Of a stretch of 64,000 nucleotides of DNA, positions 14,199 through 64,000 are shown piece by piece. The stretch is from a virus. The stretch lies in the IMG/VR virus record IMGVR_UViG_3300017917_003866, positions 1-64,000 of that record. One strand, given 5' to 3'. Position numbers and translations under genes: made by a program. The stretch's first letter is position 1. The number at the start of each line of letters is the position of its first letter. Under the pieces are notes generated by a model that did not search any database, was not told the DNA's origin, and saw only the letters and a program-made list of their open reading frames with translations.

Positions 14199-15104
14199 AT
14201 GGGATTAGTAGACAGAAATAAATTAGAGAAACCCAATACTGAGATATCTCATTATCTTGGTGTTGTTGTAGATAATAAAGACCCTGAGTTTAAAGGGAGA
14301 GCTAAGATTAGAGTTTTTGGTATTTTTGACGAAATAGCTGACGCAGATCTTCCTTGGGCTTATCAGAGATTCGAGCAGAGTTATGGACTCGGAGGTGGAT
14401 CTGGTAGGATATCTGTTCCTAAGCTTGGATCTGTAGTACACGTTCAGTTTAATAATGGGAACTATTATAGTCCCGAATATAAAGCTGTTCAGGAATTGTC
14501 TCCTGATTTAATAGACGAGATTAGAGCTAGCTATGACGGTGCTCATTCATTAATATATGACGGTATAGAAAGACTTAAAATGTATTATACTGTAGAGAAA
14601 GGATTAGTTATAGATCTGAAGGAATCTAAAATTATTATAAGAAATGATAATTCTATATTAATAACCCATGCTGATGATACTGCATCTATAGAATTAAAAG
14701 GAGGAAAAATAACCAAGTATGCGGATCAGGAAATAGAAAATACTGCAGTAACGAGGATAAAACATAGTTCAGAAGAAGTTTGGATGGACGGAAAAACTAC
14801 CAATCTAGGACACTCTCCTCTATTTTCTGCAGTATGTGCTGAGCCATTATGGGATTTTTTAAAAAAACTAGCTATATCAGTAGATAGCAAAATGCCAGCA
14901 ACCCCGGGAGTTAATTCAACATTAGCATCTAGTTTTGAACAATTGGCTACAAGTCAAACCGTAAGGGTTACTCGAGAGAATGCACCAGAATTTCCTGTAG
15001 TACCTCTTGACGCTAATTCCCCTGTAGGTATACCTAATTCGGGAACTAGTGGTACATCGGGAACTAGTGGTACATCAGGAACTAGCGGAATAACAGGAGT
15101 ATAA
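14199..15104 (+). CDS. Baseplate central spike, gp5/VgrG-like (OB fold plus short beta-helix, no lysozyme domain seen)
   Basis: YLGVVVDNKDPEFKGRAKIRVFG...LPWA...SVPKLGSVVHVQFNNGN is the Gp5 N-terminal OB signature. Confidence 0.85.
   Translation: MGLVDRNKLEKPNTEISHYLGVVVDNKDPEFKGRAKIRVFGIFDEIADADLPWAYQRFEQSYGLGGGSGRISVPKLGSVVHVQFNNGNYYSPEYKAVQELSPDLIDEIRASYDGAHSLIYDGIERLKMYYTVEKGLVIDLKESKIIIRNDNSILITHADDTASIELKGGKITKYADQEIENTAVTRIKHSSEEVWMDGKTTNLGHSPLFSAVCAEPLWDFLKKLAISVDSKMPATPGVNSTLASSFEQLATSQTVRVTRENAPEFPVVPLDANSPVGIPNSGTSGTSGTSGTSGTSGITGV
15039..15089 (+). repeat. (Ser-Gly-Thr)n coding repeat at the C-terminus of the spike protein
   Basis: 18-nt unit tcgggaactagtggtaca repeated; encodes SGTSGTSGTSGTSGTSG. 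Confidence 0.9.
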
Positions 15105-18100: not shown

Positions 18101-20208
18101 TTTGGACTATAGTTCCACCTATACTTATACCGCTTCCTTTTAATTTAGGTATGCTTGTTATTTTTATACCATTCATAGGTGGATTTATGCCTACACCTTT
18201 AGTTTACATAAAGGAATTTATAACGGGGAGTTCTTTATTTTTAACAGGTATTAGAGGTCCTAGATTTATCCCTAGAAAATCTGATCCTAAAATAAAAGAT
18301 CCATTAGAGAAAATAAAACAAGCTTTATCTTTCGGTATACCAGATAAACTAATACCTCTACCGGGATTCGGATTAGATAATTTAGATTCTGCTCCTAGAG
18401 TTCTAGGAGATATTAAAGCTAATCTTACAAAAATATTTGATAGCGTTCCCCCTCCTGGTAATTTACAACAGCTTAGGGATTTACAGAATAATGAAAGAGA
18501 ACTGAAAAGAAGAATAAAAGAAAAGGAAAGAGACTATAAAAGTAAATCTGCTTTATTAGATGTTCCTGAACCAGATATTTCTGCTGAGACTGAAGAATTA
18601 AAAAATATTATAAAACAGAGAAAGGATACTTTAAAATCTGTAATTAAAGACTATTTAAATAACAGTATACCAGATCCTAAATCTATATACTTTCCTAAGG
18701 ACAAAGATAAATTAAAAATAGACATTCCTGGTATAATAAAATCTCTTAGGATATTAAAAGAAATGAGAGCAAGCCTAGTTCCTGTTGATTGTCCCGATTT
18801 TATAAATTTCAAAGATGAAATGAGGGAGGTTTTAAAACTTATGCGTATAGTTTGTCCTCCTAAATACTTTTTAGAGAACTTTGAGGTAGCTAATTCTAGC
18901 AAAATATTCATGAGAAAGGATAAGGATCCGAGACTTATGACTGATGATGAATTTAGCGATCTAGTAAAACAGATAAGAGGTGTATCCCTTGTAATAACGA
19001 AAGTTATTCTTTGGGGAAATAAATTTTCAGTAATAAAGAAAGTAAGAGAGGGAGCTTTCTCGCCTATTGAAAATAGCGAATATGAGGGTGTTTTTAAATT
19101 TCCTGAAATAAAAATAACAAATTCAGCTCCCAAAGCACTTAAGTTTTTAAGAAAGAAAAATCCTATAATAGAGGCTATTAAAATAAGGATAATGGATGGA
19201 TTATCTAAAATAGAATATATCCCGGAGGATTTCTCTAGATATGTTAGATATGAAGGGGAAAATCCTATATTAGTTATAAGGGTTAAAGATCTAAAGAAAT
19301 TAGTTTCTAAAAAATTAGGATTAAGTAGAATAGGACCTTTTGATCCAATTAGACCACTAGACGAAGAAGAGCCATTAATATCTAGTTTCCCTTATCCCAA
19401 AGGACCTTTATCTTGTCTAGGTTCACTTAACGGAGGATTTGGTAATGCTGTAGCTGCTTTTGAGCTTCCTACGGTTTTTCCTTTGAAACAGGATCAGCTA
19501 ACACAAACTCCTGGGCTAGGCGGTATTATACAGGTTACTATTCCTGGATCTAAAGTAAAATCTTTTCTAACTGAATCTTTAATTAAGTCTTTAGACTCAG
19601 GAGCTCTTGAAGCTGCTTTCCCTGAGATAAATGATGTAAATTCTCCTAAGTTTTTAAATTTAGATCCTAATGATATACAAAAATTAAGTAAAACATTAGT
19701 TACTAATTTAATAAATCCGGAATCCCCTGATATACCTCCTTTCTTAAATATATTGAAGACACCTGTGTTTCCCCCTGCAAGGCCAACTGATATGATAGAG
19801 CAGGCTTTAATAGGATTAGGAGCACCTCCTCCTGCTAGGATAGTCTATAGTTTGTTCTGGGAATACTTTAAAAGTCTACCAAAAACTCCACTAGGAGATA
19901 AAATAGTGCTTCCAAAAATTAGTGCTTCCTCTGAATTACTAGCCAGAATACCTTGGCCTCTTGCGGTTCTTATAGGTAGAAATGTTTTAAATATATTAAA
20001 TCCTATAGCAATGAATGACGATCATCCCGTATGGAGAAGAATGAGTTTAAAGAATACATACTATGTTGTTTATATAGATGAATTTTTAAGAAGTGCAGCG
20101 GATGTTTCTGGATTGTTTAAGTTCTTTCTTGGATCTGCAGATCCGGTATATCCTATACCAGAACTCCCTTCTGAACTTAAAAAAGCTTTTAATATAAAAA
20201 AATATTAA
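15106..20208 (+). CDS. Large (1700 aa) hypothetical protein, probably virion-associated
   Basis: Starts 1 nt after the gp5-like gene; coiled-coil segments, a Cys cluster and a Pro-rich hydrophobic segment. Confidence 0.55.
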   Translation: MAGDIGSRIDDLLGKDFSQMSTEEILGIISGGQDFNIPYEDLQSKEGFEKELEKSQKEVDSIIESLKPQPLPISIKDVEDLSCKYEGDDLYSRILIESVKKEDPKLYNDLLRSDEYRKNLPISENDLGVKIQGGRDLGFSKKIPSEGITKYLKKRKPDLLQKLNEKIFDNLDPLLLGKPSNSGSRKKRKMKILGFEIPLEFIMNKTQIVHVKIGGDEISIDGALERINSLLKKQNENSNPCDFKDIDENTQSERIDGFDSNFYPDGDDPIIDDDCLPGIPEDPITGDPILTKSSFDESLDEFCDPPIYEFKREEVKDPEPPSVDVNAIDACVNSALEKSKKLEDDVKVLARWQMIERNLEEILYHYEAIYEYQKSLYDNWLSRVPKNEGGDPSDFQIGISILTYNDQILIYQKELINQIQNYNNDKTVFLNNNNIFTENLFLLDVYDTELSDPELEQLFNDQINAGLSPINYDNLSQSWPINDGIIKFKENVEDIRSIMIEGNFISVIENKIQETQDLLDSAISSLSEKKGSPVSVEDVEKSFIPSNTATSDVYGQGNTALDINARVFKSPLEITLTGTSYTYDSYGYDFLKALEDFSVRYKTKFNKELGELQFELSFVTDYGSPLPYKKTKKPSKISFTGASSEPLSEVNEPDEQKIKIGNEHADNGGLLSDYFPEYLKSYQFLKIKNIKTGFPDVAKFYDFIEKIINTNDSKESIIAKIVEDRGILYGNLIEKSASNWLFFTAEERGDNDARDPSKTRPASFTEDSEPTPVFTDFYSNFKNKWNSKYLENKNAYIKPALDNLKNQARKAGEGLAKTLPASDVIGIRILENYLDVKKKYEQIKEIMLLAAQKINDVNESLSPENVEKRFSDIKCAGADSPPAEDDKENCPPVCCGEPGSDFKNGNYLMSSPPSSDCPTMFQRCWWKQFCEDVTKVGLLPYPNGLPPIEDPKYFLSAGPSVRLGLKYWPVGYLPPAFIPIPFPNPIDGNPYIRIPLPMIWTIVPPILIPLPFNLGMLVIFIPFIGGFMPTPLVYIKEFITGSSLFLTGIRGPRFIPRKSDPKIKDPLEKIKQALSFGIPDKLIPLPGFGLDNLDSAPRVLGDIKANLTKIFDSVPPPGNLQQLRDLQNNERELKRRIKEKERDYKSKSALLDVPEPDISAETEELKNIIKQRKDTLKSVIKDYLNNSIPDPKSIYFPKDKDKLKIDIPGIIKSLRILKEMRASLVPVDCPDFINFKDEMREVLKLMRIVCPPKYFLENFEVANSSKIFMRKDKDPRLMTDDEFSDLVKQIRGVSLVITKVILWGNKFSVIKKVREGAFSPIENSEYEGVFKFPEIKITNSAPKALKFLRKKNPIIEAIKIRIMDGLSKIEYIPEDFSRYVRYEGENPILVIRVKDLKKLVSKKLGLSRIGPFDPIRPLDEEEPLISSFPYPKGPLSCLGSLNGGFGNAVAAFELPTVFPLKQDQLTQTPGLGGIIQVTIPGSKVKSFLTESLIKSLDSGALEAAFPEINDVNSPKFLNLDPNDIQKLSKTLVTNLINPESPDIPPFLNILKTPVFPPARPTDMIEQALIGLGAPPPARIVYSLFWEYFKSLPKTPLGDKIVLPKISASSELLARIPWPLAVLIGRNVLNILNPIAMNDDHPVWRRMSLKNTYYVVYIDEFLRSAADVSGLFKFFLGSADPVYPIPELPSELKKAFNIKKY

Positions 20209-20215
20209 TTTCTTG

Positions 20216-20244
20216 GAAATTTTAATGCAATTTTACACTACAAA
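20216..20244 (+). promoter_or_regulatory. Putative early/middle promoter GAAATT-N17-TACAAA
   Basis: Intergenic before the S1-like gene; same spacing as the sites at 5651 and 53061. Confidence 0.45.
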
Positions 20245-20264
20245 CAAAGATAAACCCAAATAAC

Positions 20265-21374
20265 ATGAAAAACAAAAATTTTAGTTCCTTCGATTATGAT
20301 ACAGCTGAAAGAGAAAGACTTGAAGCTATTTATAGTGGAACCTTTCCGGAGGAAAATAAAAAAATAACAGGAAAGGACATACAGAACAATTCTTCTGAAA
20401 GAATAACAGTAACATCGATTGATTTCGAAAAAGGAGTTGCCCTAGGCGAGACATCCTTTGGACAAACAATTATAATTGATACGAAGAAGGAAGAAAAAAA
20501 TATGAGAAAGCTAGGATATCCTTCTATAGAAATAAGTGAAGGACAAGTACTAGATGTTGTTATACAAAAAGATTCTTCTGGTTCTTTTAATGGATCTGTT
20601 TCTGCTGGATATGAAAAAGCACTTAAGAGTGAGCTTCATAGATCTATTAAAGATGAGGATTGTGCATTTAAAGTTAAAGTTAAGAATGTTTGTAACGGTG
20701 GATTCATGGTTGATCTATCAGGAATCGAATGCTTCCTACCTGGAAGTCTTGCTGCAGCAAACAGAATTATGAACTTTGCAGACTACGTAGGTAAAGAATT
20801 AACAGTAATGGTTGAAATCTATGATCAGAAGAGAGATATTTTTGTTGTATCGTTCAAAAAATATCTTAGAAAAATTATTGATAGAGAGGTTCAAAATCTT
20901 TCGTTTGCTACTAAATACCAAGGAACAGTTACTGGATTATCCAATAATGGTGTATTTGTTGAATGGGATGAGATCTATACAGGAATAATCTCTATTGATG
21001 ATTCTAACCGTGGATCGCTAGAAAAATACCAAGCAGGGGATACTGTAGAGTTCTATGTAATTGATATAAAAAATCCACAAAGAATCAATTTATCAGTTTC
21101 AGAGCCAAACGAAAAAATGAAAGCTGTCCAAGAAATGAAGGATAGTTCTTCCGAAGTTTTAGGGGAAAATACCAATTTGAAAATATATAAAGGAGAGGTT
21201 ACTAAAATTAAAACTTTCGGTATTTTCGTAAAAATGGAAAACGGATTGAACGGTCTTATCGAAAAAGAGAAATTAGTAAGTTCTATTAAAGAATATGAGG
21301 TTGGGCAATCGGTTGATTTCTCGATCTTGAGTGTGGATAGTTCCTCTCTCAAAATACAATTAATAGAGAAATAA
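20265..21374 (+). CDS. Ribosomal protein S1-like multi-S1-domain RNA-binding protein
   Basis: VKNVCNGGFMVDLSGIECFLPGS...YVGKELTVMV...FVVSFKKYL (bS1 domain-2-like), YQGTVTGLSNNGVFVE...RINLS, YKGEVTKIKTFGIFVKMENGLNGLI...VGQSVDFSILSVD...KIQL. Confidence 0.85.
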   Translation: MKNKNFSSFDYDTAERERLEAIYSGTFPEENKKITGKDIQNNSSERITVTSIDFEKGVALGETSFGQTIIIDTKKEEKNMRKLGYPSIEISEGQVLDVVIQKDSSGSFNGSVSAGYEKALKSELHRSIKDEDCAFKVKVKNVCNGGFMVDLSGIECFLPGSLAAANRIMNFADYVGKELTVMVEIYDQKRDIFVVSFKKYLRKIIDREVQNLSFATKYQGTVTGLSNNGVFVEWDEIYTGIISIDDSNRGSLEKYQAGDTVEFYVIDIKNPQRINLSVSEPNEKMKAVQEMKDSSSEVLGENTNLKIYKGEVTKIKTFGIFVKMENGLNGLIEKEKLVSSIKEYEVGQSVDFSILSVDSSSLKIQLIEK

Positions 21375-24018: not shown

Positions 24019-25716
24019 ATGGATTTATTATCAAAGAATAGAGCAAAAATATCAGATCTAATATCTCAAACTTTTGAGCTAATACAAGCAAGATATGGGA
24101 TGTCAAATCAGTTATTTACTGTTGCATCTGTATGGGGACAAATAATATTTGTACTAGACAACCTTTCGCAGTTTGTATTATTTTTTATTGAGGATTCTAT
24201 AACTGAATTAAACATAAATACTGCTACTCGTGAATCTTCTATATATGGTTTAGCTACATTAGCAGGGCATAACCCAACCAGAAATATATCTGCAAAAGGA
24301 GAAGTTTCAATTAAATGGAACGGAAAAAATGTAGAATCAATTGGTGGAAGTGCTGTACTTATACCAAGGAATTCTCAGATCAAATGCGTAAACAACGGTA
24401 AAACCTATCTATTAAAATTTCCTCAGGAATATACGAGATTAAATTTAGACGGAACGTCAAAGTTAATTTGTTCTATAATGGAAGGATCTCTCTCGATTAA
24501 TCAATATACAGGGAGTGGGGATTTTCTACAGAGTTTTAATGTATCGTCGAGAGGTACTTCAGGTATAGAAAACTTTGAAGTTTATGTTAAAGTTAATGGG
24601 GTAGAGTGGAAAAGGTATGATTCATTATATGATATACCTAGAAATGGTTTAGGCTATCTAGTAAAAAGCTCACTTATTTCTGGTATAGATATATTCTTTG
24701 GAAATAGAGATTTTGGATTACCTCCTGCTGCAGGTTCCAATATAGAGGTTACTTATTTAGAATCAGCGGGAAGCGGTGGAAATCTTTTATTAGATGATTC
24801 CTCTCAAGCAATCTTTAATTTTGATTCTGAGGGTACTGATTTATTCGGTAATACCGTTAGCTTATCTGAGATTCTTCAGGTATCTTGTACTATAGCTCCT
24901 CAAATGGGTGCTAATCAAGAATCTGTTGATTTAACAAGATTAATAGCTCCTAAAACATCTAGAAGTTTTGTTTTGGCTAATCCAACTAATTATATAACAT
25001 TCTTTGAAAAATTTGGACAGTTCTCTATAATAGAAGCTTTTACAACTTTTGATGACCAATATATTGATGATGATAATATTATTTATTTAATTCTTGTACC
25101 TGATATTCAGTTAACTTTAAAAAGTAATGAAACATATTTCGATATTCCTATTTCAAGATTTAAACTTACCCAACCTCAAAGGGATAGAATATATCAATTA
25201 TTAGACGAGAGCGGACAAAAAATAGTTACCACAGAGGTTAAGATATTAGACCCTGTTATAAAAAGGTATGTGGTAAATATAGCTTTAACTATGTTTGAAG
25301 GAAACGACCCGGATACACTAAAAACAACTATAACAAATACTTTGAGCGATTATTTTCTTAACATCCGAAGAAGAGATAAAATACCTAGATCTGATTTAAT
25401 TGCTGCAGTGGAAGAAATAGAGGGGGTTGACTCGGTATCTCTTTATTTTGTTGGTGAGGAAAACGAAGCAGCAAAAGCTCAAAATCCTAATTCTCCTGAA
25501 ATAGGATTCGATGAATTCGGAGATATAGTAATAGGCAAGGATGAGATAGTTGTTATATCGGGAGGATGGGAAGATAGAAACGGTATATTTTACGATCTAG
25601 GTGCAGGTATGGAAACTCTTTCTTCTATAAATATAGATATTAGAGCAATTGTTCCTTATACTTATAACTCAAGAGTAAATGGATTATTAAAGAGTTCTTT
25701 AAAAACAGGTAATTAA
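24019..25716 (+). CDS. Baseplate wedge protein gp6 / baseplate J-like
   Basis: NINTATRESSIYGLATLAGHNP, IFFGNRDFGLPP, VTYLESAGSGGN, GANQESV; follows gp25. Confidence 0.8.
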   Translation: MDLLSKNRAKISDLISQTFELIQARYGMSNQLFTVASVWGQIIFVLDNLSQFVLFFIEDSITELNINTATRESSIYGLATLAGHNPTRNISAKGEVSIKWNGKNVESIGGSAVLIPRNSQIKCVNNGKTYLLKFPQEYTRLNLDGTSKLICSIMEGSLSINQYTGSGDFLQSFNVSSRGTSGIENFEVYVKVNGVEWKRYDSLYDIPRNGLGYLVKSSLISGIDIFFGNRDFGLPPAAGSNIEVTYLESAGSGGNLLLDDSSQAIFNFDSEGTDLFGNTVSLSEILQVSCTIAPQMGANQESVDLTRLIAPKTSRSFVLANPTNYITFFEKFGQFSIIEAFTTFDDQYIDDDNIIYLILVPDIQLTLKSNETYFDIPISRFKLTQPQRDRIYQLLDESGQKIVTTEVKILDPVIKRYVVNIALTMFEGNDPDTLKTTITNTLSDYFLNIRRRDKIPRSDLIAAVEEIEGVDSVSLYFVGEENEAAKAQNPNSPEIGFDEFGDIVIGKDEIVVISGGWEDRNGIFYDLGAGMETLSSINIDIRAIVPYTYNSRVNGLLKSSLKTGN

Positions 25717-55806: not shown

Positions 55807-57348
55807 ATGTTAATATTTAGAGTAAGTGAGGACAACAACTGGCTAAGTTTAATAGATTATTCAGAAGAATTTGAAAGGAAACAGATAGACATATCCTTAA
55901 CTAAAAAAATACATAATCACTTTTTTCATCCCCTTGTTAAGAAAAAACATTGGGATGGGTCTATATGTTTCGTAGACAAAAAGCTTCCTGTATGGAGAGT
56001 TCCTATAGGATTATGGTCTGAAATTTATCAGATATGCGAAAAATATAAGATAGAGGTAAAGATTGAAGGACTCGAGAGATTAATAGATCAGAATTTTACA
56101 TTAGAAATCTTTACTGATTGGTGTAATAATTTCTTTAAAGGAGGAGTTGGTGGGGATCCTAATAAAATGCCTAGAGACTATCAGATAGAAACTGCATGGA
56201 AAATAATAAAATTTAAACTTTCGGTTTCTGAGGTTGCTACTAGCTCAGGAAAAACACTGATTGCTTTTATTGTTATGGCTTATCTTAAGGAAGTAATGAA
56301 AGTTAAAAAATTCCTTATGATAGTTCCTAATACTAATCTAGTTCTCCAAGGTTCCGAAGATTTTGAAGAATACGGATTAGAGAAACTGGAAGATTGCGAG
56401 ATTCAGCAGATCCATGGATCTAACAAGAAAAAAATATCGGGAGGGCTAATGATAGGTACTTATCAATCTTTGGTTAAGATGGAGCCTGAGTTCTTTGACG
56501 ACGTGGAAGCGGTTTTTGTTGACGAGTGTCACCAAGCTCAAAGTGCATCGATTAAAAAAGTAGTAGCACTTTGTAAAGATTCTAAATGGAGATTTGGGTT
56601 ATCAGGAACTTTAGCAAATAAAAACACTGCGGAGTATTTAACTATTCAGCAATTCTTGGGTCCACTAATAATGGAAATATCCCCTAAGTTCCTATTTGAT
56701 AATAAGTATGCTACCCCGGTTTCTATCAAGATTGTAAAGATGGATTGGATGGATCCTGAAGTAAAACAAAAACTATCATCTCTAAAGGAAAATAAAACCG
56801 AAATGGAGGGTAATGATCTATTTAATCTGGAAAGAAAATTAGTAGTAGCATCAGATAAAAGACTTAATTATATAATAGATTTCGTTCTTAAGACCTCTAA
56901 AAATTCATTAATACTTTTCCAGTCAGTAGGAGAAGGATACGGTAAAAAGATATATGACGGAATAAAAGAAAAATCTAATGATAGAGAAGTTTATTATATA
57001 GATGGGGATACTGATCCTGATAAGAGGGATATTTTTACTAAAAGAATGGAAGATGGTACTAATAAAATAATGGTTGCTTCTTTCGGTACAATGTCTACTG
57101 GTATTTCTGTAAAAAATATACATAACATATTTCTAACAGAGTCTTATAAATCGGAGGTTTTGATAAAACAAAGTTTGGGTAGGGGAATGAGATTATTTGA
57201 GGGAAAGGAGAAAGTTAATATAATAGACTTTGTTGATGATTTTGCATGGGAGGGAAAGGAAAACTATTTATTAAAGCATTCTAAAGAGAGAATAGAAATT
57301 TATAAGAGAGAGCATTTTGATTATAAGATCTATAACGTCAAAATTTAG
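55807..57348 (+). CDS. uvsW: SF2 DNA helicase UvsW-like
   Basis: WDGSI, PRDYQ, ATSSGKT, VDECH, RFGLSGT, STGISVKNIH, QSLGRGMR, IIDFVDD. Confidence 0.9.
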   Translation: MLIFRVSEDNNWLSLIDYSEEFERKQIDISLTKKIHNHFFHPLVKKKHWDGSICFVDKKLPVWRVPIGLWSEIYQICEKYKIEVKIEGLERLIDQNFTLEIFTDWCNNFFKGGVGGDPNKMPRDYQIETAWKIIKFKLSVSEVATSSGKTLIAFIVMAYLKEVMKVKKFLMIVPNTNLVLQGSEDFEEYGLEKLEDCEIQQIHGSNKKKISGGLMIGTYQSLVKMEPEFFDDVEAVFVDECHQAQSASIKKVVALCKDSKWRFGLSGTLANKNTAEYLTIQQFLGPLIMEISPKFLFDNKYATPVSIKIVKMDWMDPEVKQKLSSLKENKTEMEGNDLFNLERKLVVASDKRLNYIIDFVLKTSKNSLILFQSVGEGYGKKIYDGIKEKSNDREVYYIDGDTDPDKRDIFTKRMEDGTNKIMVASFGTMSTGISVKNIHNIFLTESYKSEVLIKQSLGRGMRLFEGKEKVNIIDFVDDFAWEGKENYLLKHSKERIEIYKREHFDYKIYNVKI

Positions 57349-57355
57349 GAAATAG

Positions 57356-57363
57356 GATATATA
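57356..57363 (+). promoter_or_regulatory. Putative late promoter GATATATA
   Basis: Intergenic after uvsW, at the start of the right-hand cluster. Confidence 0.55.
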
Positions 57364-57384
57364 GAGTAGAAATAAAGTACTTTG

Positions 57385-57990
57385 ATGCAAAAAATTAAAA
57401 ACTTTAAGGATTTTTGTCAAATTAATGAGTCTAACGAGGAGCTTTTTTTTAGAAGGCATCTTGGTAATAACGCTTCAAGCTATGATGATCGTGCTAAAAA
57501 TCATTATGATTTAGGTGATAATCCTTCAGTGTTACAAAAAACTAAAAACTTCTTCCAAAAAATGGAAGATAGAATCAATAGAGCTGCTGAAATAGGTAAA
57601 CAACAAGTTAGACAAAATAGAGCAAGCAGAACTCACGGAGGTCCTGATACAGGATTCGAAATTCTTTTCGGATCCTTATCTGTGGTTCCTAATGTGTTAA
57701 AAAGAGTATTTGCCCCTACTAAATATGAGTTTACTAAGAAAGCACCTAGTGAAGATAAGGTAGATCTAGAATTTATGAGGCATACAAATGAAGATTTTGC
57801 TCAAAACGAACTTCCTAATATCAAAACTGAGGATCAGTTAGCTGATCATATAGGTGATTTATATAATAGAGGTGATGTTGTAATGGGCCAAGTACCAGTA
57901 TTAGATGATATAGCTAGAAATAGGGTAAATCTTTATTACCAACATCAGGCAAATCCATCCCAACCTATATTCCAAACAAATAATGTATAA
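57385..57990 (+). CDS. Hypothetical protein, possible internal head protein
   Basis: N-terminus MQKIKNFKDFCQINES resembles a capsid-targeting leader. Confidence 0.55.
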   Translation: MQKIKNFKDFCQINESNEELFFRRHLGNNASSYDDRAKNHYDLGDNPSVLQKTKNFFQKMEDRINRAAEIGKQQVRQNRASRTHGGPDTGFEILFGSLSVVPNVLKRVFAPTKYEFTKKAPSEDKVDLEFMRHTNEDFAQNELPNIKTEDQLADHIGDLYNRGDVVMGQVPVLDDIARNRVNLYYQHQANPSQPIFQTNNV

Positions 57991-57993
57991 AAA

Positions 57994-58830
57994 ATGAAAA
58001 AATTCTCTTTAGCAGTAGAAAAAAAGAAAGAAGAACTAAAAGAAAGTCAGATAGTTAATGAAAGAAACATGTATCTTGAGTTCTCAAAGAAATATCATAA
58101 AAAACATGGTGTTTCTGGTCCTTTTGATAAAAAATTTAATGGGGACGAAAAAGAACAAGAAAAATACATGGATGGTCTATCAAAAGCTTGGACTGAGTAC
58201 AAAAAAGAGAAAGGTATAAAACCTAAATCTAGCGGATCCAAGTTTGATTTTGCAAAGAAGAAGGTTAACGAATCTAAAGCACTTGAAATGGCTAAAAGCA
58301 TGATAGGTGACGGAGGAGATCCTAACTATCACTTTGTAACAATGTGCGACGATTTCTATTTTGATAAAACCGGAGAGATGGTAAGATATAGCAAAGATAT
58401 GCTTTCGTCTCCTCTTAAAGTAAAAACAACTCCCGACCTAGGAGCTTATACTTTTGGTCCTTTTGCAAATTTAGAAGAATCAAAAATGTTTGCTGCAAGT
58501 ATAGAATTAGACGAGATCAACGGTCCTAGAATGGTAACAATAGAGGATAGAAAAACTGGTGAGGTTTATACTAGATATTTGACTTGTAAAATGCAACCAG
58601 TTTGGAATGAAATTGAAGAGGAAGAGGATATCGAAGACGAGGAGGAAGAATACGAAGATCCTAATTCTGAATATACTTACGGAGAAGAACACGAGGAGGA
58701 TCACGACGAGACTGAGGATGAGGAAGATGAGGACGAAGAAGATGGTGATGAATATACTGCTACTATACCTCAAGGAGACGATGATGAAGTCGAAGACGAA
58801 ATTGAAGACGAATACGACGAAGAAGAATAA
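57994..58830 (+). CDS. Hypothetical protein with basic N-terminal part and very acidic C-terminal tail
   Basis: Last ~70 aa mostly D/E; LKES, VNER and VNES sites. Confidence 0.65.
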   Translation: MKKFSLAVEKKKEELKESQIVNERNMYLEFSKKYHKKHGVSGPFDKKFNGDEKEQEKYMDGLSKAWTEYKKEKGIKPKSSGSKFDFAKKKVNESKALEMAKSMIGDGGDPNYHFVTMCDDFYFDKTGEMVRYSKDMLSSPLKVKTTPDLGAYTFGPFANLEESKMFAASIELDEINGPRMVTIEDRKTGEVYTRYLTCKMQPVWNEIEEEEDIEDEEEEYEDPNSEYTYGEEHEEDHDETEDEEDEDEEDGDEYTATIPQGDDDEVEDEIEDEYDEEE

Positions 58831-58832
58831 AA

Positions 58833-59276
58833 ATGTTTAATCCTATACAGAGTACAGCACTTTATCCAGTTTTACAGCATTATACAGGATGTAAGATATC
58901 TTCAATATCTTTAGAGGGAGATGATTTTATATTCAAAACACTTTTAGGAGAAAATGGTATACTCAAGGAGGATATTACGGGAAACTGGAGTATTAAAATA
59001 GGACAAGAGCTTGTTTATACGATAGAAAAAGATATTTTCAATGTATTGATCAATCCGGACAAAAAAAGCTCTTTAGAAGACTACATAGATATACTAAATG
59101 ATCTATTTAATAATAAGGATATAAGTTATAGATCTAGACTTTTAGTAGTAAATATCATGAAATTTTTAGAGGAATATATAATAAGTTCAGATTTCGTCCC
59201 TAAGAAAAGCTTAAGGATAGGACCTCTTTTAATTTATAATTTAAAAGGTAGAAAAATTATTAATTGTTTAAACTGA
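58833..59276 (+). CDS. Hypothetical protein
   Basis: 147-aa ORF; TGATG overlap with the next gene. Confidence 0.6.
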   Translation: MFNPIQSTALYPVLQHYTGCKISSISLEGDDFIFKTLLGENGILKEDITGNWSIKIGQELVYTIEKDIFNVLINPDKKSSLEDYIDILNDLFNNKDISYRSRLLVVNIMKFLEEYIISSDFVPKKSLRIGPLLIYNLKGRKIINCLN

Positions 59277-61294
59277 TGCCTGGAATAAAATATTTATCGG
59301 ACATATACGAGAAAAAAGGAAAGTCCTTTATTGAGAATCTTTTCAATAAAAATTTAACAGTAACTGAAAATTTGGATGGTCCATCTTTTTCTTTCGAGCG
59401 AGATTTTACTGGAGACAATATATCTTTTTATAAAAAAGATCAAGATAATCCTATAACTAAGGTTGATAGGATTTTAATGAGATATTACGAAAAACCTATA
59501 AGTTATATAGAATCTATATCTCCTGAAATTATGAATCAGCTTCCTAAGGGATGGAGATTCGGAATGATTTATTTTCCGAATACTAAGCCTGTTAGAATAG
59601 AGTATGATAGAATACCAAAAAACCATTTAATACTAACACATGTAATGGTTAGGGATGAGTTTGGTGAAATTATAGATAATATCCAAGACAAAAGTGAATT
59701 GGACGAATGGGCTGATAAATTAGGCGTTGAAAGATCTCCTATTATTTTTCAAGGGAAGTTAAATAGAGATCAGAAGATATCCATAATGGATTTTCTTTCT
59801 ACCCCTCTTATGGATTTAAAAAATAAATTTAAAACCGAGAGTTTTACCAAATATCTAATATCTATTTTAAATAAAAATGTTGAATCCACCACATTAGGAA
59901 AGGATTTACAGGGTGAAATAGATTCTCTAGTTTTTAGATTTGAAGACGAGGAGGGAAAGGAAGAGACTGTTTTAGCAAAAATGGTAGATCCGGTTTTCCA
60001 TGAAATAAATAAAAGCAGAAAGGTTACTCAGACCTCTTATTTTCCTAGTGATGTTTATTCTTTATGTCTTATAGACGTAATGAATTTTATATTAGAGACT
60101 GGAGTAGAAAATTTTATAGCTTATGGAAATGACCCAGAGGAAAGATACATTGGTTTTGTTTTCGATGTATTTAAAAAATTCATATACGAGGAGGGAGAAA
60201 AATACGTAGGCGCAGATTTTCAAAAACCAGAGTATTTAAAAAGCGAGGGGTTTGAAATAAATAAGGATCTAATAAAAGATGATGAGGTATTAAAGTTTAT
60301 TGAGGATGACGAAGTTTATATAGACATACTTCAAATGATACTTAATTCATTTAGAAAGCTCAAAAGAAAACCTCATGGATTTTTCACAGAAGGCCTAATA
60401 CAGCAGTTTAATATGTTAGTAGAAGAAATAGCTAATTATATAAATGCTAAGAAAAAAGAGCTTGTAGAGGAATCTTTAGGGGTTCCAAGTTTTGTATGGT
60501 TTAAAAAAGTTGGAGCTAGATTTAATCCTATATTAAATGAAGAAGAGAGCGAAGATGAATATGAAGAATTGGAGGAGATAATAGATGGTACACTTCCTGA
60601 TAATATCGTTCCACTTAACGAGTCTGAAGATAATTCTCTTCTAAAAAAAGAGGATGATTCAGATAATAAAGACACCTCAGAATTTTTCTCGTTTAAAGAT
60701 TTTAAAAAAGTAGTATCTACTCATAAGGAAAAAAGAAAAATAAAGATATTGAACGAAAATAATAGTAAGGTAAATATAGTAATTGGGAAATTTCAACCAT
60801 TTAATAATGGGCACTTAAAAATGTGTACAAGATTAAAGAAAGAAAACAATTTACCAGTTTTTCTTTGTGTAGTACATCCAGGAAGCGAGCCTGGTTCTAA
60901 ATATCCCTTCTCGGAGGATTTGATAAAAAAATCAATAGGATCTTTAACATCAGAGAATAATAAATTATTTGCTGGGTACGAAATAATACCATCTAATCTT
61001 TTGGAGGATGCCATAAATTCAGTTGCAAAACATGCTAATCCTGCTTCAATTTGCATAGGGGAAAGAGATTTTGAAAATATGGTTTTACAGAGAGAATGGG
61101 TAAGAAACAAATACGATTTAGAAGGAGGAGATATAGAAATATACAAAACCCCCCAATGGTCTAATAATAATGATATTAGAAAATCTATAAAAGATGGTGA
61201 CTTTCAACAATTTAAAAGCAAAGTACCTAAATCTATAGCAGTTCTTTTCAATGAATTTACTAAACAAATAAACGGTTCTGAGGAGGATATATAA
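59276..61294 (+). CDS. RNA-ligase-like N-terminal domain fused to a HIGH-family (cytidylyltransferase/NMNAT-like) domain, both with substituted catalytic motifs
   Basis: VTENLDG (cf. EKxDG), PIIFQG, LAKMVDP; C-terminal IVIGKFQPFNNGH (cf. GRFQPxHxGH), KYPFS, IGERD. Confidence 0.6.
   Translation: MPGIKYLSDIYEKKGKSFIENLFNKNLTVTENLDGPSFSFERDFTGDNISFYKKDQDNPITKVDRILMRYYEKPISYIESISPEIMNQLPKGWRFGMIYFPNTKPVRIEYDRIPKNHLILTHVMVRDEFGEIIDNIQDKSELDEWADKLGVERSPIIFQGKLNRDQKISIMDFLSTPLMDLKNKFKTESFTKYLISILNKNVESTTLGKDLQGEIDSLVFRFEDEEGKEETVLAKMVDPVFHEINKSRKVTQTSYFPSDVYSLCLIDVMNFILETGVENFIAYGNDPEERYIGFVFDVFKKFIYEEGEKYVGADFQKPEYLKSEGFEINKDLIKDDEVLKFIEDDEVYIDILQMILNSFRKLKRKPHGFFTEGLIQQFNMLVEEIANYINAKKKELVEESLGVPSFVWFKKVGARFNPILNEEESEDEYEELEEIIDGTLPDNIVPLNESEDNSLLKKEDDSDNKDTSEFFSFKDFKKVVSTHKEKRKIKILNENNSKVNIVIGKFQPFNNGHLKMCTRLKKENNLPVFLCVVHPGSEPGSKYPFSEDLIKKSIGSLTSENNKLFAGYEIIPSNLLEDAINSVAKHANPASICIGERDFENMVLQREWVRNKYDLEGGDIEIYKTPQWSNNNDIRKSIKDGDFQQFKSKVPKSIAVLFNEFTKQINGSEEDI
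61286..61293 (+). promoter_or_regulatory. Putative late promoter GATATATA
   Basis: Overlaps the upstream stop codon, 18 nt before ATG 61312. Confidence 0.5.
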
Positions 61295-61311
61295 AATAAT
61301 TAAATGGAGAA

Positions 61312-62169
61312 ATGAAAAGAATATTATCCTTCAGCGATTTTGCTATTTTTGAATATAACGGTTTTGGATACTCAGCTAATAATTTAAATGAAGCTGTTTA
61401 TCTAGACGAGAGAAATAAAACTCCACATAATCCAGATGCTCTTAAAAAAATGAGGGCGTGTGTTTTTTTACTTAATGCTTCATATCCGTTTTTTGCTTCT
61501 ATGTTATCTAGATTATTAATCAGAGAAAATAGAAATCTTAGATTTAAAACAATGGCAACCGACGGGGTTAGTATACATTACGACCCGGATTTTGTTCTTG
61601 CCCATACAGACGAAGAAATAATATGGGTAATCGCACACGAAGTTTTACATAACACCCTAGTTCACTTTCTAAGATGTCCTAAGGATAAAACAAAAGCTGG
61701 TGTATGGAATGTCGCTGCAGATTATGCTCTGAATCAACTCTTAACCCCAATAGATCCAGCAACAGCGGATACTACTAAGCCCACACCTGCTGGAAAAGGA
61801 GGGATAGGAAAAATGGTAGAGGGATCACTTTATCCTGGATGTGGACACGTTCCTTATGATTATGAGTTTGTAAATAGGACTGCGGAATGGATATACAACA
61901 AACTCCTGGAAAATGGATATGTACCGGAACCTGGTGATGATCCTAAACCTACACCACCACCACCGCCACCACCAAAAGATCCCATAGTTGGAGATATTAT
62001 ATACGATCCAGGAAATCAATCTTATGGGATAGTTAAATCTATAGACGAAAATTCTGGAGATCTTGAATATGACCCGATACCTAAAGAAAAAGTAAAAGAA
62101 TATTTAAAAAGAAAATCTAAAGGTGAAAATATCTTAGGTGATGACATAGAAAAAGAACTAGACTTCTAA
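61312..62169 (+). CDS. Putative zincin metallopeptidase domain (DUF2201_N-like)
   Basis: YPFFASML, TMATDG..IHYDPDF, IAHEVLH (HExxH at 61636-61650), WNVAADYALN, TAEWIYNKL. Confidence 0.8.
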   Translation: MKRILSFSDFAIFEYNGFGYSANNLNEAVYLDERNKTPHNPDALKKMRACVFLLNASYPFFASMLSRLLIRENRNLRFKTMATDGVSIHYDPDFVLAHTDEEIIWVIAHEVLHNTLVHFLRCPKDKTKAGVWNVAADYALNQLLTPIDPATADTTKPTPAGKGGIGKMVEGSLYPGCGHVPYDYEFVNRTAEWIYNKLLENGYVPEPGDDPKPTPPPPPPPKDPIVGDIIYDPGNQSYGIVKSIDENSGDLEYDPIPKEKVKEYLKRKSKGENILGDDIEKELDF

Positions 62170-62178
62170 TTTACCAAT

Positions 62179-63150
62179 ATGAAAGCTAAAATAACAGATA
62201 TAAGAATACAGGAATTACCGGAATCAGGTACAGGTACAGGTACAGGAACTCCATCTCCAGAAAATGTTGATCGATGGGGAGAAGACGTACAGGATAATGA
62301 TGTACCAGAAAGAAATCCTGATGGTACATTAGAGGATTCAGAATTTAAAAGAGTCGATAGCCCAGGACCATCAGCTCCAGAGGGGTATAACCCAGGAGAA
62401 ATACTCAGACCTGGTGAACTTGGAGATCTTGGAGGTGATTCTGGATTAAACGGAGAAAGCTTAGCTGAGGAATGGGAGGATATTTCTAGATTAGCTGAGA
62501 AAACAGCAGGTAATATACCAGGATCTCTTAAAAGAGCTTTGGCTAAGATTAAGAAGCCAGTAGTAGATTGGAAAGCTGAACTAGCTAAGTATATAGACGA
62601 GGCTATATCTAAATCTAAATACACATTACCTGCTAGAAGATTCCTTGGAGCAGGAAAAGCTCAGTATGGATATAAGAGATACAAGGAGGATTTCGAAAAT
62701 GTGGTGGTTGCTATAGATACATCAGGGTCTATTACTAGGGATATGATAGAACAATTCCTTGGCGAGGTTATGAAAATAACTGATGTTTATACTCCACAAA
62801 AAACTGTAATATTATATTGTGATACTCAGGTTTATGAACCGGATATATTAGAGCCAGGAGATTTACCAGATCTTAATAAAATAGCTGGTGGGGGTGGGAC
62901 TTATTTTTGGCCTCCTTTTAAATGGGTTCAAAAAAATATGATGGAAGAGGGTGAAAAACCTACAATATTTATATACTTTACTGACGGGGAAGCTACATTC
63001 CCTTCTGAGCAGGATTATGATATTGCGGATTATTCTGATAGATGTATCTGGGTATTTGTTACATTCAACGATCAGCCTTACCCTAATCCACAGCCTTTCG
63101 GAGAAAGAATAGACATTGTTCTTGCTAATAAGAACGCGAAAAGAATATAA
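62179..63150 (+). CDS. VWA-like domain protein (DUF2201 C-terminal-like)
   Basis: PVVDWK..L, PARRF, VVAIDTSGSI (MIDAS), YCDTQV, GGGGTYF.PPF, YFTDG. Confidence 0.85.
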   Translation: MKAKITDIRIQELPESGTGTGTGTPSPENVDRWGEDVQDNDVPERNPDGTLEDSEFKRVDSPGPSAPEGYNPGEILRPGELGDLGGDSGLNGESLAEEWEDISRLAEKTAGNIPGSLKRALAKIKKPVVDWKAELAKYIDEAISKSKYTLPARRFLGAGKAQYGYKRYKEDFENVVVAIDTSGSITRDMIEQFLGEVMKITDVYTPQKTVILYCDTQVYEPDILEPGDLPDLNKIAGGGGTYFWPPFKWVQKNMMEEGEKPTIFIYFTDGEATFPSEQDYDIADYSDRCIWVFVTFNDQPYPNPQPFGERIDIVLANKNAKRI

Positions 63151-63155
63151 AAATA

Positions 63156-63163
63156 GATATATA
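63156..63163 (+). promoter_or_regulatory. Putative late promoter GATATATA
   Basis: Intergenic, 14 nt before ATG 63178. Confidence 0.55.
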
Positions 63164-63177
63164 AAATAAAAAAAATA

Positions 63178-64000
63178 ATGGGAAAGAGAATTTATAATTT
63201 TGACGAGTTTGTAAATGAATCCTATATGAATGAGGGATTTTTCTCTGATCTAGGTTCAAAAATATCTACTTGGGCAAAAAATTTATATAACGCTGTTAAA
63301 TCTGGTATTGTTAGATTAATATCTTCAGGTCCTAAATCAGGAACCCCGAGAGTTGCTCTATTTGATGATTCAAAAAGTGAATCTATATTAGATCAGGTTA
63401 ATAATTTTTATAAAGGAACTGAGTACTATAATATGAATAACCTGCAAATTCCAGAGACTATGCAGGAGAGTTTCCTATGGGAAGATGCAGTTCCTCTAGA
63501 GTATCCTATGAAGGATGATATTCCTAATTATAGCGAAGCCGAAATAAAAACGGATATCAAGAGAAGCATGAGAGAAATCTTTAGGATAGCTGATGAAATG
63601 GATGCTGCCGCACAATCTGGAGCTAGCGAAGATGAGATAGATGATATTTACAGAGGTATATTAGATGTTAAGCCTATATTTATATACGGAGCTCCTGGAA
63701 TTGGTAAAACACAAATTGTAGCTCAAGTATGCGATGAACTAGGAAAAGAACTATATGGTCACAAGCTTTCATTAGTTAACGTAGATGGTGAAAACGCAGA
63801 GCCTGTAGATTTTGCTGGTGTACCTAGTGTAGTAGACATCGAAACTCCATCTGAAGAAAACCCTATCGGTAGAGGAGTTACAAGATCTAATATTAATGCA
63901 GATATATTACCTTACGATAACGGAAGAAACGGAAAAGGAGGTATAATATTTATTGACGAGCTAAATAGGATGCCGGAAGAGGTTATCAAAATATTTATGA
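63178..64000 (+). CDS. MoxR-like AAA+ ATPase, 3'-truncated by the window end (not in the ORF track)
   Basis: Read directly: MGKRIYNFDEFVNESYMNEG...PIFIYGAPGIGKT (Walker A, 63688-63711)...EPVDFAGVP...GGIIFIDELNR (Walker B). Confidence 0.88.
   Translation, partial: MGKRIYNFDEFVNESYMNEGFFSDLGSKISTWAKNLYNAVKSGIVRLISSGPKSGTPRVALFDDSKSESILDQVNNFYKGTEYYNMNNLQIPETMQESFLWEDAVPLEYPMKDDIPNYSEAEIKTDIKRSMREIFRIADEMDAAAQSGASEDEIDDIYRGILDVKPIFIYGAPGIGKTQIVAQVCDELGKELYGHKLSLVNVDGENAEPVDFAGVPSVVDIETPSEENPIGRGVTRSNINADILPYDNGRNGKGGIIFIDELNRMPEEVIKIFM

Follow-up and report, generated by a model that had tools for sequence, protein, structure and literature searches.

Why do three genes at the end of a stretch of viral DNA begin with the same short peptide? 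The stretch, from the IMG/VR virus record IMGVR_UViG_3300017917_003866 (hereafter the window), spans bases 1 to 64,000 of one contig of 72,519 bases, which is a fragment of a jumbo myophage genome. The genes in question belong to a cluster at 57356-64000: open reading frame (ORF) 57385, ORF 61312, which encodes the peptidase half of a split DUF2201 protein, and ORF 63178, which encodes a MoxR-like AAA+ ATPase. An earlier note on this DNA had taken the cluster for a payload of enzymes packaged into the virion by leaders resembling the capsid-targeting sequence (CTS) of phage T4. We have found the leader to be conserved as a peptide and, in a near-complete relative, to be attached to many unrelated proteins; judged from the sequences, it is probably, albeit with considerable reservation, a lineage-wide capsid-targeting propeptide of the T4 kind.

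The shared leader and its upstream motif

ORFs 57385, 61312 and 63178 all begin with [KR]-I-x-x-F-x-[DE]-F, after which comes Φ-x-E (Φ, hydrophobic). The leader of ORF 57385 reads MQKIKNFKDFCQINE (TTG 57382, one codon upstream, is the start of the listed ORF), and a cut is predicted after INE at nucleotides (nt) 57421-57429. ORF 61312 opens with MKRILSFSDFAIFEYNGFGYSANNLNE, also given as MKRILSFSDFAIFE, and has a further site, NLNE, at residue 27, and the leader of ORF 63178, MGKRIYNFDEFVNESYMNE, is followed by a lineage-specific extension of ~150 amino acids (aa). The expression [KR]I..F.[DE]F was found within the first 14 residues of 3 of the 64 contig ORFs and at no other place in those ORFs, against a mean of 0.001 (maximum 1) N-terminal matches in 2000 composition-preserving shuffles, which bears out the sharing reported in the earlier note. 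More leaders lie past the window end: at 65061 (MRHIKLFEQFLLEE), at an internal Met near 65590 (MINNILSYEEFINE) and, on the minus strand, at 68890 (VKKILSFKLFEDV).

With the ATPase as query, 13 IMG/VR loci were identified (52-86% identity), in which the gene order is kept and which lie on contigs of up to 248 kb. The relatives retain all three cluster leaders plus those of the 65061, 65590 and 68890 families; the leader of 57385, which the pattern detected in 10 related loci, is retained there with codons changing synonymously, and that of 61312 is retained in 13 loci. Across the window and 12 loci, residues of the ATPase and peptidase leaders are invariant or conservatively replaced over synonymous codons (GTA, GTC or GTT for Val; AGA, CGC, CGT or AGG for Arg; TTA, CTT or CTC for Leu). 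As the residues stay fixed while the codons vary synonymously, selection acts on the leader peptide. In isolated phages, alignments to the ATPase do not begin before residue 145 (30 matches listed of 663 records), and those to the peptidase do not begin before residue 33 in 24 of the 25 matches listed (39 records), the remaining one starting at residue 15. The leader is an add-on, which the listed ATPase and peptidase homologues of isolated phages do not carry.

Each of the three genes is preceded by GATATATA, a late-type promoter motif, at 57356..57363, 61286..61293 and 63156..63163 on the + strand. These copies end 21, 18 and 14 nt before the ATGs at 57385, 61312 and 63178, respectively, exactly the 14-21 nt noticed earlier; the second overlaps the last codons of ORF 59276. 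The count of the motif is no higher than chance (9 in the window on both strands versus 10.4 in shuffles); its placement, however, is non-random, with 7 of the 9 + strand contig copies ending no more than 30 nt upstream of a + strand ORF start (binomial 3e-10, the chance level being 2.6% of positions). Among 279 8-mers of the same composition, 82 of 1710 copies (4.8%) were so placed, and none of these words had more than 3 upstream copies. The four other start-proximal copies stand before 6478 and before the structural-region genes 33534, 45815 and 49540. The intergenic gaps together with the three promoter motifs suggest three transcription units, namely 57385 to 59276, 61312 plus 62179, and 63178 onward. 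A ninth + strand copy, at 66431, is located in the loop and stem of the best terminator-like hairpin of the region (contig 66425-66449), and this hairpin may end the transcript that starts at 63156. A scan of 57001-72519 for the sigma-70 consensus found fewer sites than shuffles did (46 versus 66).

The leader in a near-complete relative

The near-complete relative, G002, has 248,191 bases, in which 346 ORFs were called by a simple longest-ORF rule. A position matrix, seeded from 14 matches to the expression and refined on N-termini, gave at ≥12 bits 28 N-terminal matches versus 0.1 in shuffled proteins, and 4 internal ones versus 1.5; the training on N-termini makes the N-terminal count partly circular, a reservation that does not apply to the seed expression or the shuffles. 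When the start window was widened slightly, 30 leader proteins were identified among the 346 ORFs. In general form, the leader of the lineage reads roughly M-K-[HR]-I-K-x-[FY]-x-x-F-Φ-N-E. Once the leader is removed, none of the 30 matches another by BLASTP at E≤1e-3, so that the tag is a module on unrelated proteins, and an origin of the shared N-terminus as the start of a paralogous family was rejected on the same result. The special payload cluster of the earlier note has to be given up in this respect, as the tag occurs on ~30 unrelated late genes of G002. Of the 30 leaders, 14 have Φ-x-E directly behind the motif, at +1 to +3, where 0.6 would be expected, and 22 have it no more than 13 residues away, where 6.8 would be expected.

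A Pfam scan covered 42 leader-like G002 ORFs, selected from 57 candidates (matrix ≥4 plus the aromatic pattern) by dropping chance-looking ones and adding two by eye. Seven of the 42 match a family at E≤1e-3, five of them above the curated cut-off, and the other 35 have no match. The five tagged families are DUF2201_N, AAA_5, adenylate kinase, the Tad3 Thoeris-inhibitor domain and CHAP, and in every Pfam-matched case the known domain begins after the leader. The Tad3 domain (type I Thoeris inhibitor) occupies residues 54-175 of a leader-tagged 261-aa protein (L025:11569-12351; G002 151569-152354; E 4.7e-21).

The co-occurrence of leader and motif, for which the earlier note had proposed a genome scan, is evident in G002. 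No other 7-mer is as enriched as ATATATA in the 45 nt ahead of its ORFs (59 of 346, 21-fold); this word occurs no more than 60 nt before 20 of the 30 leader genes versus 43 of the 316 others (odds ratio 12.7, p=7e-10), and several of the 10 motif-less leader genes directly follow another leader gene. Among the 43 leaderless genes with ATATATA are those for the protease-scaffold protein (see below), two more head-module ORFs, and baseplate, tail and fibre proteins; a dozen or so of the 43 have weaker leader-like starts, and none of the baseplate, tail and fibre genes has a leader. Most often, 4 nt separate ATATATA from the start codon (15 of 63 cases in G002, and also at window 49528 and contig 68307), which suggests that late mRNAs are leaderless, or nearly so, in the sense of transcripts. 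BLAST with T4 gp55 gave no match in G000, G001 or G002 and was uninformative.

Neither the probable early genes nor the replication genes of the window share the tag; equal frequency in early or replication proteins had been named as a ground for dismissing the idea. A long conserved upstream element (…TTAGCTAAGTAAACCAATTA…; …aaatcattttttt…tctataTTAGCTAagtaaACCAATTAaac) precedes ~25 small + strand genes of G002 at ~163-193 kb (L026-L027), and the TTAGCTAAGTAAACCAATTA-type element probably represents the early promoters of this phage; on the contig of the window it has three isolated 9-mer matches only. Early-type upstream words stand before none of the 30 leader genes and before 30 of the 316 others, and none of the 31 G002 ORFs listed with such words, ~25 of which are the small genes at 163-193 kb, bears a leader. 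The replication genes of the window have neither motif before them and no leader.

Head module, probable capsid targeting and competing readings

The relatives provide a head context for the tag. PF03420 (Peptidase_S77, the family of T4 gp21) is present above cut-off in the contigs of three of four relatives (E 9.3e-10 in G002). In G002 the head module contains, in order, an 863-aa ORF that matches no family and may encode the portal; a 677-aa protein whose residues 21-140 are the S77 domain (L031:267-2297; G002 18267-20300); a gp23-type major capsid protein (PF07068, 7e-39); a 326-aa ORF; and, two genes past the capsid gene, the leader ORFs 23117 (MKRIKRLEEFESLNEG) and 23979 (MRITKIKDFVLEQE). 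Past the protease domain, the 677-aa protein carries at least 14 tandem 14-residue units, NLDKNISYSEYLAE, with many Φ-N-E sites followed by S, and this part appears scaffold-like. The repeat core Y-S-E-Y-L-A-E matches the leader core (S-Y-N-E-F-I-T-E, F-N-E-F-V-N-E) and that of T4 (Y-Q-E-F-I-A-E), in general terms Ar-x-E-Ar-Φ-x-E (Ar, aromatic). A scaffold that repeats the motif of the tag suggests that the tag works by scaffold mimicry. The G002 capsid protein has the sequence …HFHSLNE, a candidate cut site followed by SAG, near residue 44, ahead of the start of its Pfam match at residue 98. A prediction of the complex between residues 230-560 of the G002 scaffold and the first 60 residues of the G002 ATPase, run without controls, scored 0.00 and is evidence neither way. 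The putative portal (L018:15653-18241) and a 176-aa head-module ORF (L019:4290-4817) share another N-terminal motif, GYNP[IV][YF]E, with more Φ-x-E sites after it, which may be a second propeptide class.

A comparable set of features is found in LR756500, a 462-kb uncultured phage with a capsid protein 43% identical to that of G002. It encodes a protease-scaffold fusion with similar repeats (L037, 226725-228623, minus strand), and the tag is present on an unsplit 491-aa DUF2201 protein (MKYIKSYENFIFEN) and on two neighbouring ORFs, one of which is a leucine-rich-repeat protein; its ATPase has a tag-like start.

In the T4 record, the internal proteins IPII and IPIII begin with MKTYQEFIAE and IPI with MKTFKEFTSTTTPVSTITE (MKTFKEF...ITE). 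With position 0 assigned to the second aromatic residue, the T4 sequence is M(-6) K T Y/F(-3) x E F(0) I A E(+3), and that of the lineage leader, which has another two or three residues ahead of it, is I/L(-6) K L F(-3) E Q F(0) L/I/V N E(+3). Leaders without an immediate Φ-x-E also fit a CTS, since the cut site of IPI is not immediate either. When the G002 matrix was applied to the N-termini of 278 T4 ORFs, IPIII and IPII ranked fifth and sixth (8.1 bits), a cross-check that is supportive but modest. As described in passages of PMC3012670, PMC5694885 and PMC13716836, T4 internal proteins join the core via the CTS, which gp21 removes. The CTS has 10-20 residues and loads even foreign proteins according to the relevant part of PMC5694885, and T-even internal proteins are presented in sections of PMC3012670 and PMC13716836 as diverse anti-defence factors with only the CTS in common. 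The lineage resembles T4 in having a short N-terminal tag on otherwise unrelated proteins, K-x-Ar-x-x-F followed by Φ-x-E, a gp21-family protease, a late-type promoter and a tagged anti-defence domain. The T4-like basis claimed by the earlier note is thereby supported, with a protease of the gp21 type in the lineage, a scaffold that repeats the leader core and an equal layout of the CTS. Unlike the T4 CTS, the lineage tag is 2-3 residues longer at its N-terminus (M-K-H-I-K...), its preferred predicted cut is Φ-N-E, and it is borne by ~30 or more proteins per genome, large enzymes included (AAA+ ATPase, zinc peptidase, kinase), rather than by a handful. Moreover, whereas T4 has separate genes 21 and 22, the scaffold here is fused to the protease and contains tandem motif copies.

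Jumbo phages of the phiKZ type offer a second comparison, again from parts of PMC5694885. In SPN3US, ~50 head proteins are cut at x-x-E by a T4-related prohead protease, and the propeptides of such phages (SPN3US, 201phi2-1, phiKZ) are thought to target proteins to the prohead. They differ from the present leader in being mostly longer than 100 residues, in the lack of a single shared short tag and in the cut at A/S/G-x-E, and they belong to another clade.

If the leader is a capsid-targeting propeptide, it would co-assemble with the scaffold core during prohead formation, the prohead protease would cut after Φ-x-E, mostly after Φ-N-E, and the trimmed proteins would remain in the head. Going by their leaders, ORF 57385, the DUF2201 peptidase half and the MoxR-like ATPase are probably head cargo. 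The packaged module of the earlier note would then be retained for the peptidase and the ATPase; the VWA ORF, 58833 and 59276 lack an N-terminal leader, and the VWA half, being leaderless, could only travel bound to its partner. In the head, the peptidase/VWA/ATPase set might serve core remodelling or processing in the prohead, or it might be ejected with the DNA as a tool against the host. By analogy, the Tad3 and CHAP cargo and the result on Bas54 MoxR (see below) suggest ejection. It is a tentative possibility, on which we would not rely, that this uncultured clade of jumbo/huge phages loads ~1/10 of its proteome via one T4-like tag and injects a counter-defence and takeover kit; if true, the cargo would comprise at least 30 unrelated late proteins, including an AAA+/VWA/zinc-peptidase machine, a Thoeris-inhibitor domain, a wall hydrolase and nucleotide enzymes.

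A number of observations weigh against a capsid-targeting propeptide. Capsid, portal, terminase and prohead-protease families were matched by none of 60 contig ORFs in the PHROG and Pfam scans, and the head context is taken from relatives with 52-86% identical ATPases. The matrix trained on G002 gives 9.6 bits to 61312 and 9.2 to 57385, and internal chance matches in the contig reach 12.6; among the T4 N-termini, gp61.1 (MKTFKEFIKED), Soc and one probably spurious ORF of the tRNA region outrank IPII and IPIII, and IPI is outside the top 15. Eight of the 30 leaders have no nearby Φ-x-E, the leader of the adenylate kinase abuts the P-loop, and the VWA partner is untagged. About 1/10 of all genes, a nucleotide kinase and a 535-aa ATPase included, is a lot for head cargo. 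The label 'late' for the motif class comes solely from promoter sharing, and a search with 57001-64000 listed no RNA run. Finally, the first 50 kb of a cultured relative, Tenacibaculum phage PTm1, contain no clear leader (best 9.9 bits); virion proteins are not marked in the PTm1 record.

Some of these points would equally suit a portable docking helix for another late hub, be it a chaperone, the membrane, a replication/transcription factory or the MoxR/VWA/peptidase set, with the tagged proteins cytoplasmic and unpackaged. It is compatible with such a helix that an adenylate kinase and an AAA+ ATPase, whose usual work is in the cytoplasm, carry the tag and that eight leaders lack a nearby cut site. 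The same is true of the structure model of the ATPase, where the leader forms a short helix (residues 8-17) inside a low-confidence region, and of the aromatic look-alike motifs at the C-termini of the 66651 and 66992 families, small proteins encoded past the window, which resemble T4 clamp-binding tails. We nevertheless consider a docking helix unlikely, because the protease-fused scaffold is built of the same motif, leader ORFs are situated within the head module, tail, baseplate and fibre genes have the promoter without the leader, the layout equals that of the T4 CTS, and Φ-N-E follows the motif far above chance. A compositional or RNA-level resemblance, reflecting an A+T-rich coding start that favours translation in a genome of 32% G+C, has in its favour the low G+C content (30-36%) and a leader rich in K, N, I, F and E. 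This is very improbable, as the shuffles gave 0.001 versus 3 observed in the contig and 0.1 versus 28 in G002, codons vary synonymously over fixed residues, and the early-promoter genes of the same genome have no leader.

Quite unlikely, in our opinion, is a narrower role in which the tag brings the peptidase, VWA protein and ATPase to the prohead only as assembly or maturation helpers that are degraded or expelled before DNA packaging, with no delivery. It agrees with Iyer et al. 2021 (PMC7824862), where the section on group 2.2 jumbo phages proposes virion assembly and structural-protein processing as the role of the MoxR and peptidase-vWA pair and cites a MoxR-vWA pair as required for tail development of Acidianus two-tailed virus; moreover, the MoxR/peptidase-vWA pair is widespread in phages without such a leader. 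What speaks for delivery is that the same tag is borne by two proteins sensible only after ejection, one with a Tad3-type anti-defence domain and the other a CHAP wall hydrolase, and that a phage MoxR ATPase, Bas54_0063, is described in the pertinent part of PMC13716836 as needed to overcome a predicted defence system; neither counterpoint bears directly on this phage. The T4 CTS and the phage MoxR/vWA/peptidase pair have each been published already, as far as the cited portions of PMC7824862, PMC3012670 and PMC5694885 go, and among the literature titles and abstracts searched none joins a CTS to MoxR/DUF2201 or describes such a tag in this clade. The paper on a related isolate, Chryseobacterium phage MA9V-1 (PMC10537231), contains only sodium dodecyl sulphate-polyacrylamide gel electrophoresis.

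Genes of the cluster and their surroundings

All genes of the cluster are on the + strand. ORF 57385..57990 (201 aa) belongs to no family in Pfam, PHROGs or NCBIfam, and an ESM Atlas search with it returned only scores below 0.8. It is probably on one transcript with ORF 57994..58830, from which it is separated by 3 nt; the latter encodes a 278-aa protein with an acidic C-terminal tail, no family in the same databases and no typical leader, and the LKE and VNE sites noticed earlier are present near its start. The next one, ORF 58833..59276 (147 aa), has neither a leader nor a family in these three collections.

ORF 59276..61294 encodes a 672-aa fusion without an N-terminal leader (phrog_395; TIGR00125 under cut-off), in which an Rnl2-like ligase-fold domain (residues ~1-390) and a nicotinamide mononucleotide (NMN)-adenylyltransferase-like domain with GKFQPFNNGH (residues ~495-672) are joined by an acidic disordered linker (residues ~393-493). 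In a Foldseek search with the AlphaFold2 model (mean predicted local distance difference test score, pLDDT, 60.5), the N-terminal part matched T4 Rnl2 (2hvq; E 1.7e-7, template modelling score (TMt) 0.42) and the C-terminal part archaeal NMN adenylyltransferases (NMNAT; E 1.8e-5, TMt 0.66-0.68). Motif I of T4 Rnl2 is EKxHG, with a role assigned to its lysine. The position of this lysine is taken by Asn in 59276 (TENLDG versus REKIHG, in a BLAST alignment that is itself non-significant, E 1.9), and this residue, N32, is invariant across 9 aligned orthologues. The 'ligase/NTase' label given earlier stands at the level of fold; from model and alignment, the protein may combine a pseudo-ligase with an enzyme of NAD salvage. 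A leader-like internal segment, FFSFKDFKKVVSTHKEKRKIKILNE (60683..60757; residues 470-494), had also been pointed out just before the NMNAT-like domain. It is indeed present and nearly invariant in 13 related loci, preceded by the variable acidic linker; with the leader matrix it scores below 6 bits, and the model places it in the low-confidence linker and shows a short helix at 473-477. This FFSFKDF…ILNE segment could be an internal copy of the signal, or just part of the NMNAT-like domain.

The zinc metallopeptidase ORF 61312..62169 is the N-terminal half of a split DUF2201 protein, with HEVLH at 61636-61650 (PF13203 at 4e-17, residues 54-145; phrog_1314 positions 11-154 of 394). ORF 62179..63150, probably co-transcribed with it across a gap of 9 nt, is the C-terminal half, a leaderless VWA-like protein with the metal ion-dependent adhesion site (MIDAS) motif DTSGS at 62716-62730 (PF09967 at 2.1e-18 plus the PF13203 tail; phrog_1314 positions 177-390 of 394). 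Both DUF2201 domains are thus present, HExxH included, but not in one polypeptide. The split lies at a low-complexity linker and yields a peptidase ORF and a VWA ORF in the window (61312-63150) and in 13 of 13 relatives; L002 has two tandem VWA ORFs (L002:7099-9967), and in the unsplit DUF2201 of LR756500 (L036:3435-4910) a long GQ repeat stands at the same place, the phrog_1314 profile likewise being one piece.

The VWA gene ends 27 nt upstream of the ATPase gene (63178-64785, 535 aa), which runs past the window end at 64000. Walker A (GAPGIGKT) is at 63688-63711 and Walker B (IIFIDE) at 63943-63960. The protein matches the AAA and AAA_5 profiles and phrog_1297 (4.9e-46), the AAA_5 score being 24.2 bits (cut-off 22) for the protein as truncated by the window and 38.2 bits for its G002 orthologue; its first ~150 residues have no counterpart in other phages. 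Similarly to NorQ/NorD and CbbQ/CbbO, an AAA_5-type ATPase is accompanied here by a VWA/MIDAS partner, and NorQ chains have the highest identity (18-19%) among the matches listed. The system differs from these pairs in the 150-aa N-terminal extension and the peptidase partner, and the fold search does not separate them from others: with the model of the ATPase (mean pLDDT 63.6), NorQ occupies ranks 3, 4, 9 and 17, and RFC, MCM and RuvB score alike. The three adjacent domains are shared with group 2.2 jumbo phages as outlined in PMC7824862, to which the Lak and PTm1 phages belong, and the capsid proteins of Lak and PTm1 are the nearest named relatives of those of the lineage. Unlike that pair, peptidase and VWA are two ORFs here, and the ATPase and peptidase have the CTS-like leader, unmentioned in the sections of Iyer et al. 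that treat the pair.

The contig, with an estimated completeness of 24%, has nearly all of its genes on the + strand. PHROG and Pfam scans identified sugar-nucleotide genes at 0.3-5 kb, then baseplate and very large fibre-type proteins at 7.5-52 kb, with a gp5-like hub at 14199 and a wedge subunit at 24019, and then a T4-style replication and recombination block: a RuvC-like protein (52387), a gp32-like single-stranded DNA-binding protein (53129), primase (54103), a UvsY-like protein just below the Pfam cut-off (55337) and a ResIII/DEAD helicase (55807), directly after which come the cluster genes. The helicase gene (window 55807-57348) is in two pieces in two relatives (L003:1296-4084, L011:1509-4289), with a 289-291-aa ORF between them that resembles a mobile-element insertion or a gene of the intein type. 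Compared as DNA with isolated phages, 57356-64000 matched only in the acidic low-complexity stretch.

Past the window, the contig encodes a split family-B DNA polymerase, a pyrophosphohydrolase, the small subunit of ribonucleotide reductase and a collagen-like fibre protein. Two conserved small proteins are also encoded there, at contig 66651-66983 (L001:9651-9983) and 66992-67459 (L001:9992-10459). The former has a DUF3008-like start, MPAVS.TQQRLMGQ, and ends in NLSDYREFINRKK, and the latter ends in SLMDFKTFMNNSKANQ; both C-terminal motifs are kept in relatives. The C-terminus of the 66992 protein resembles the clamp-binding tails of T4 gp43, gp33 and gp55 (SLDFLFG, TLDFLL, SLDFLY), and by this likeness the two proteins may be clamp-binding or late-transcription factors. 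These C-terminal look-alikes are closer to clamp-binding tails than to the leader and are a separate matter.

If the leader is a head-loading signal, the set of packaged, and perhaps injected, proteins of an uncultured jumbo-phage clade would become listable by sequence search, and candidates for anti-defence and takeover could be read from it directly. The widespread and unexplained MoxR/VWA/peptidase module of phages would also be located inside the head, and its possible roles thereby narrowed to core remodelling or delivery to the host.

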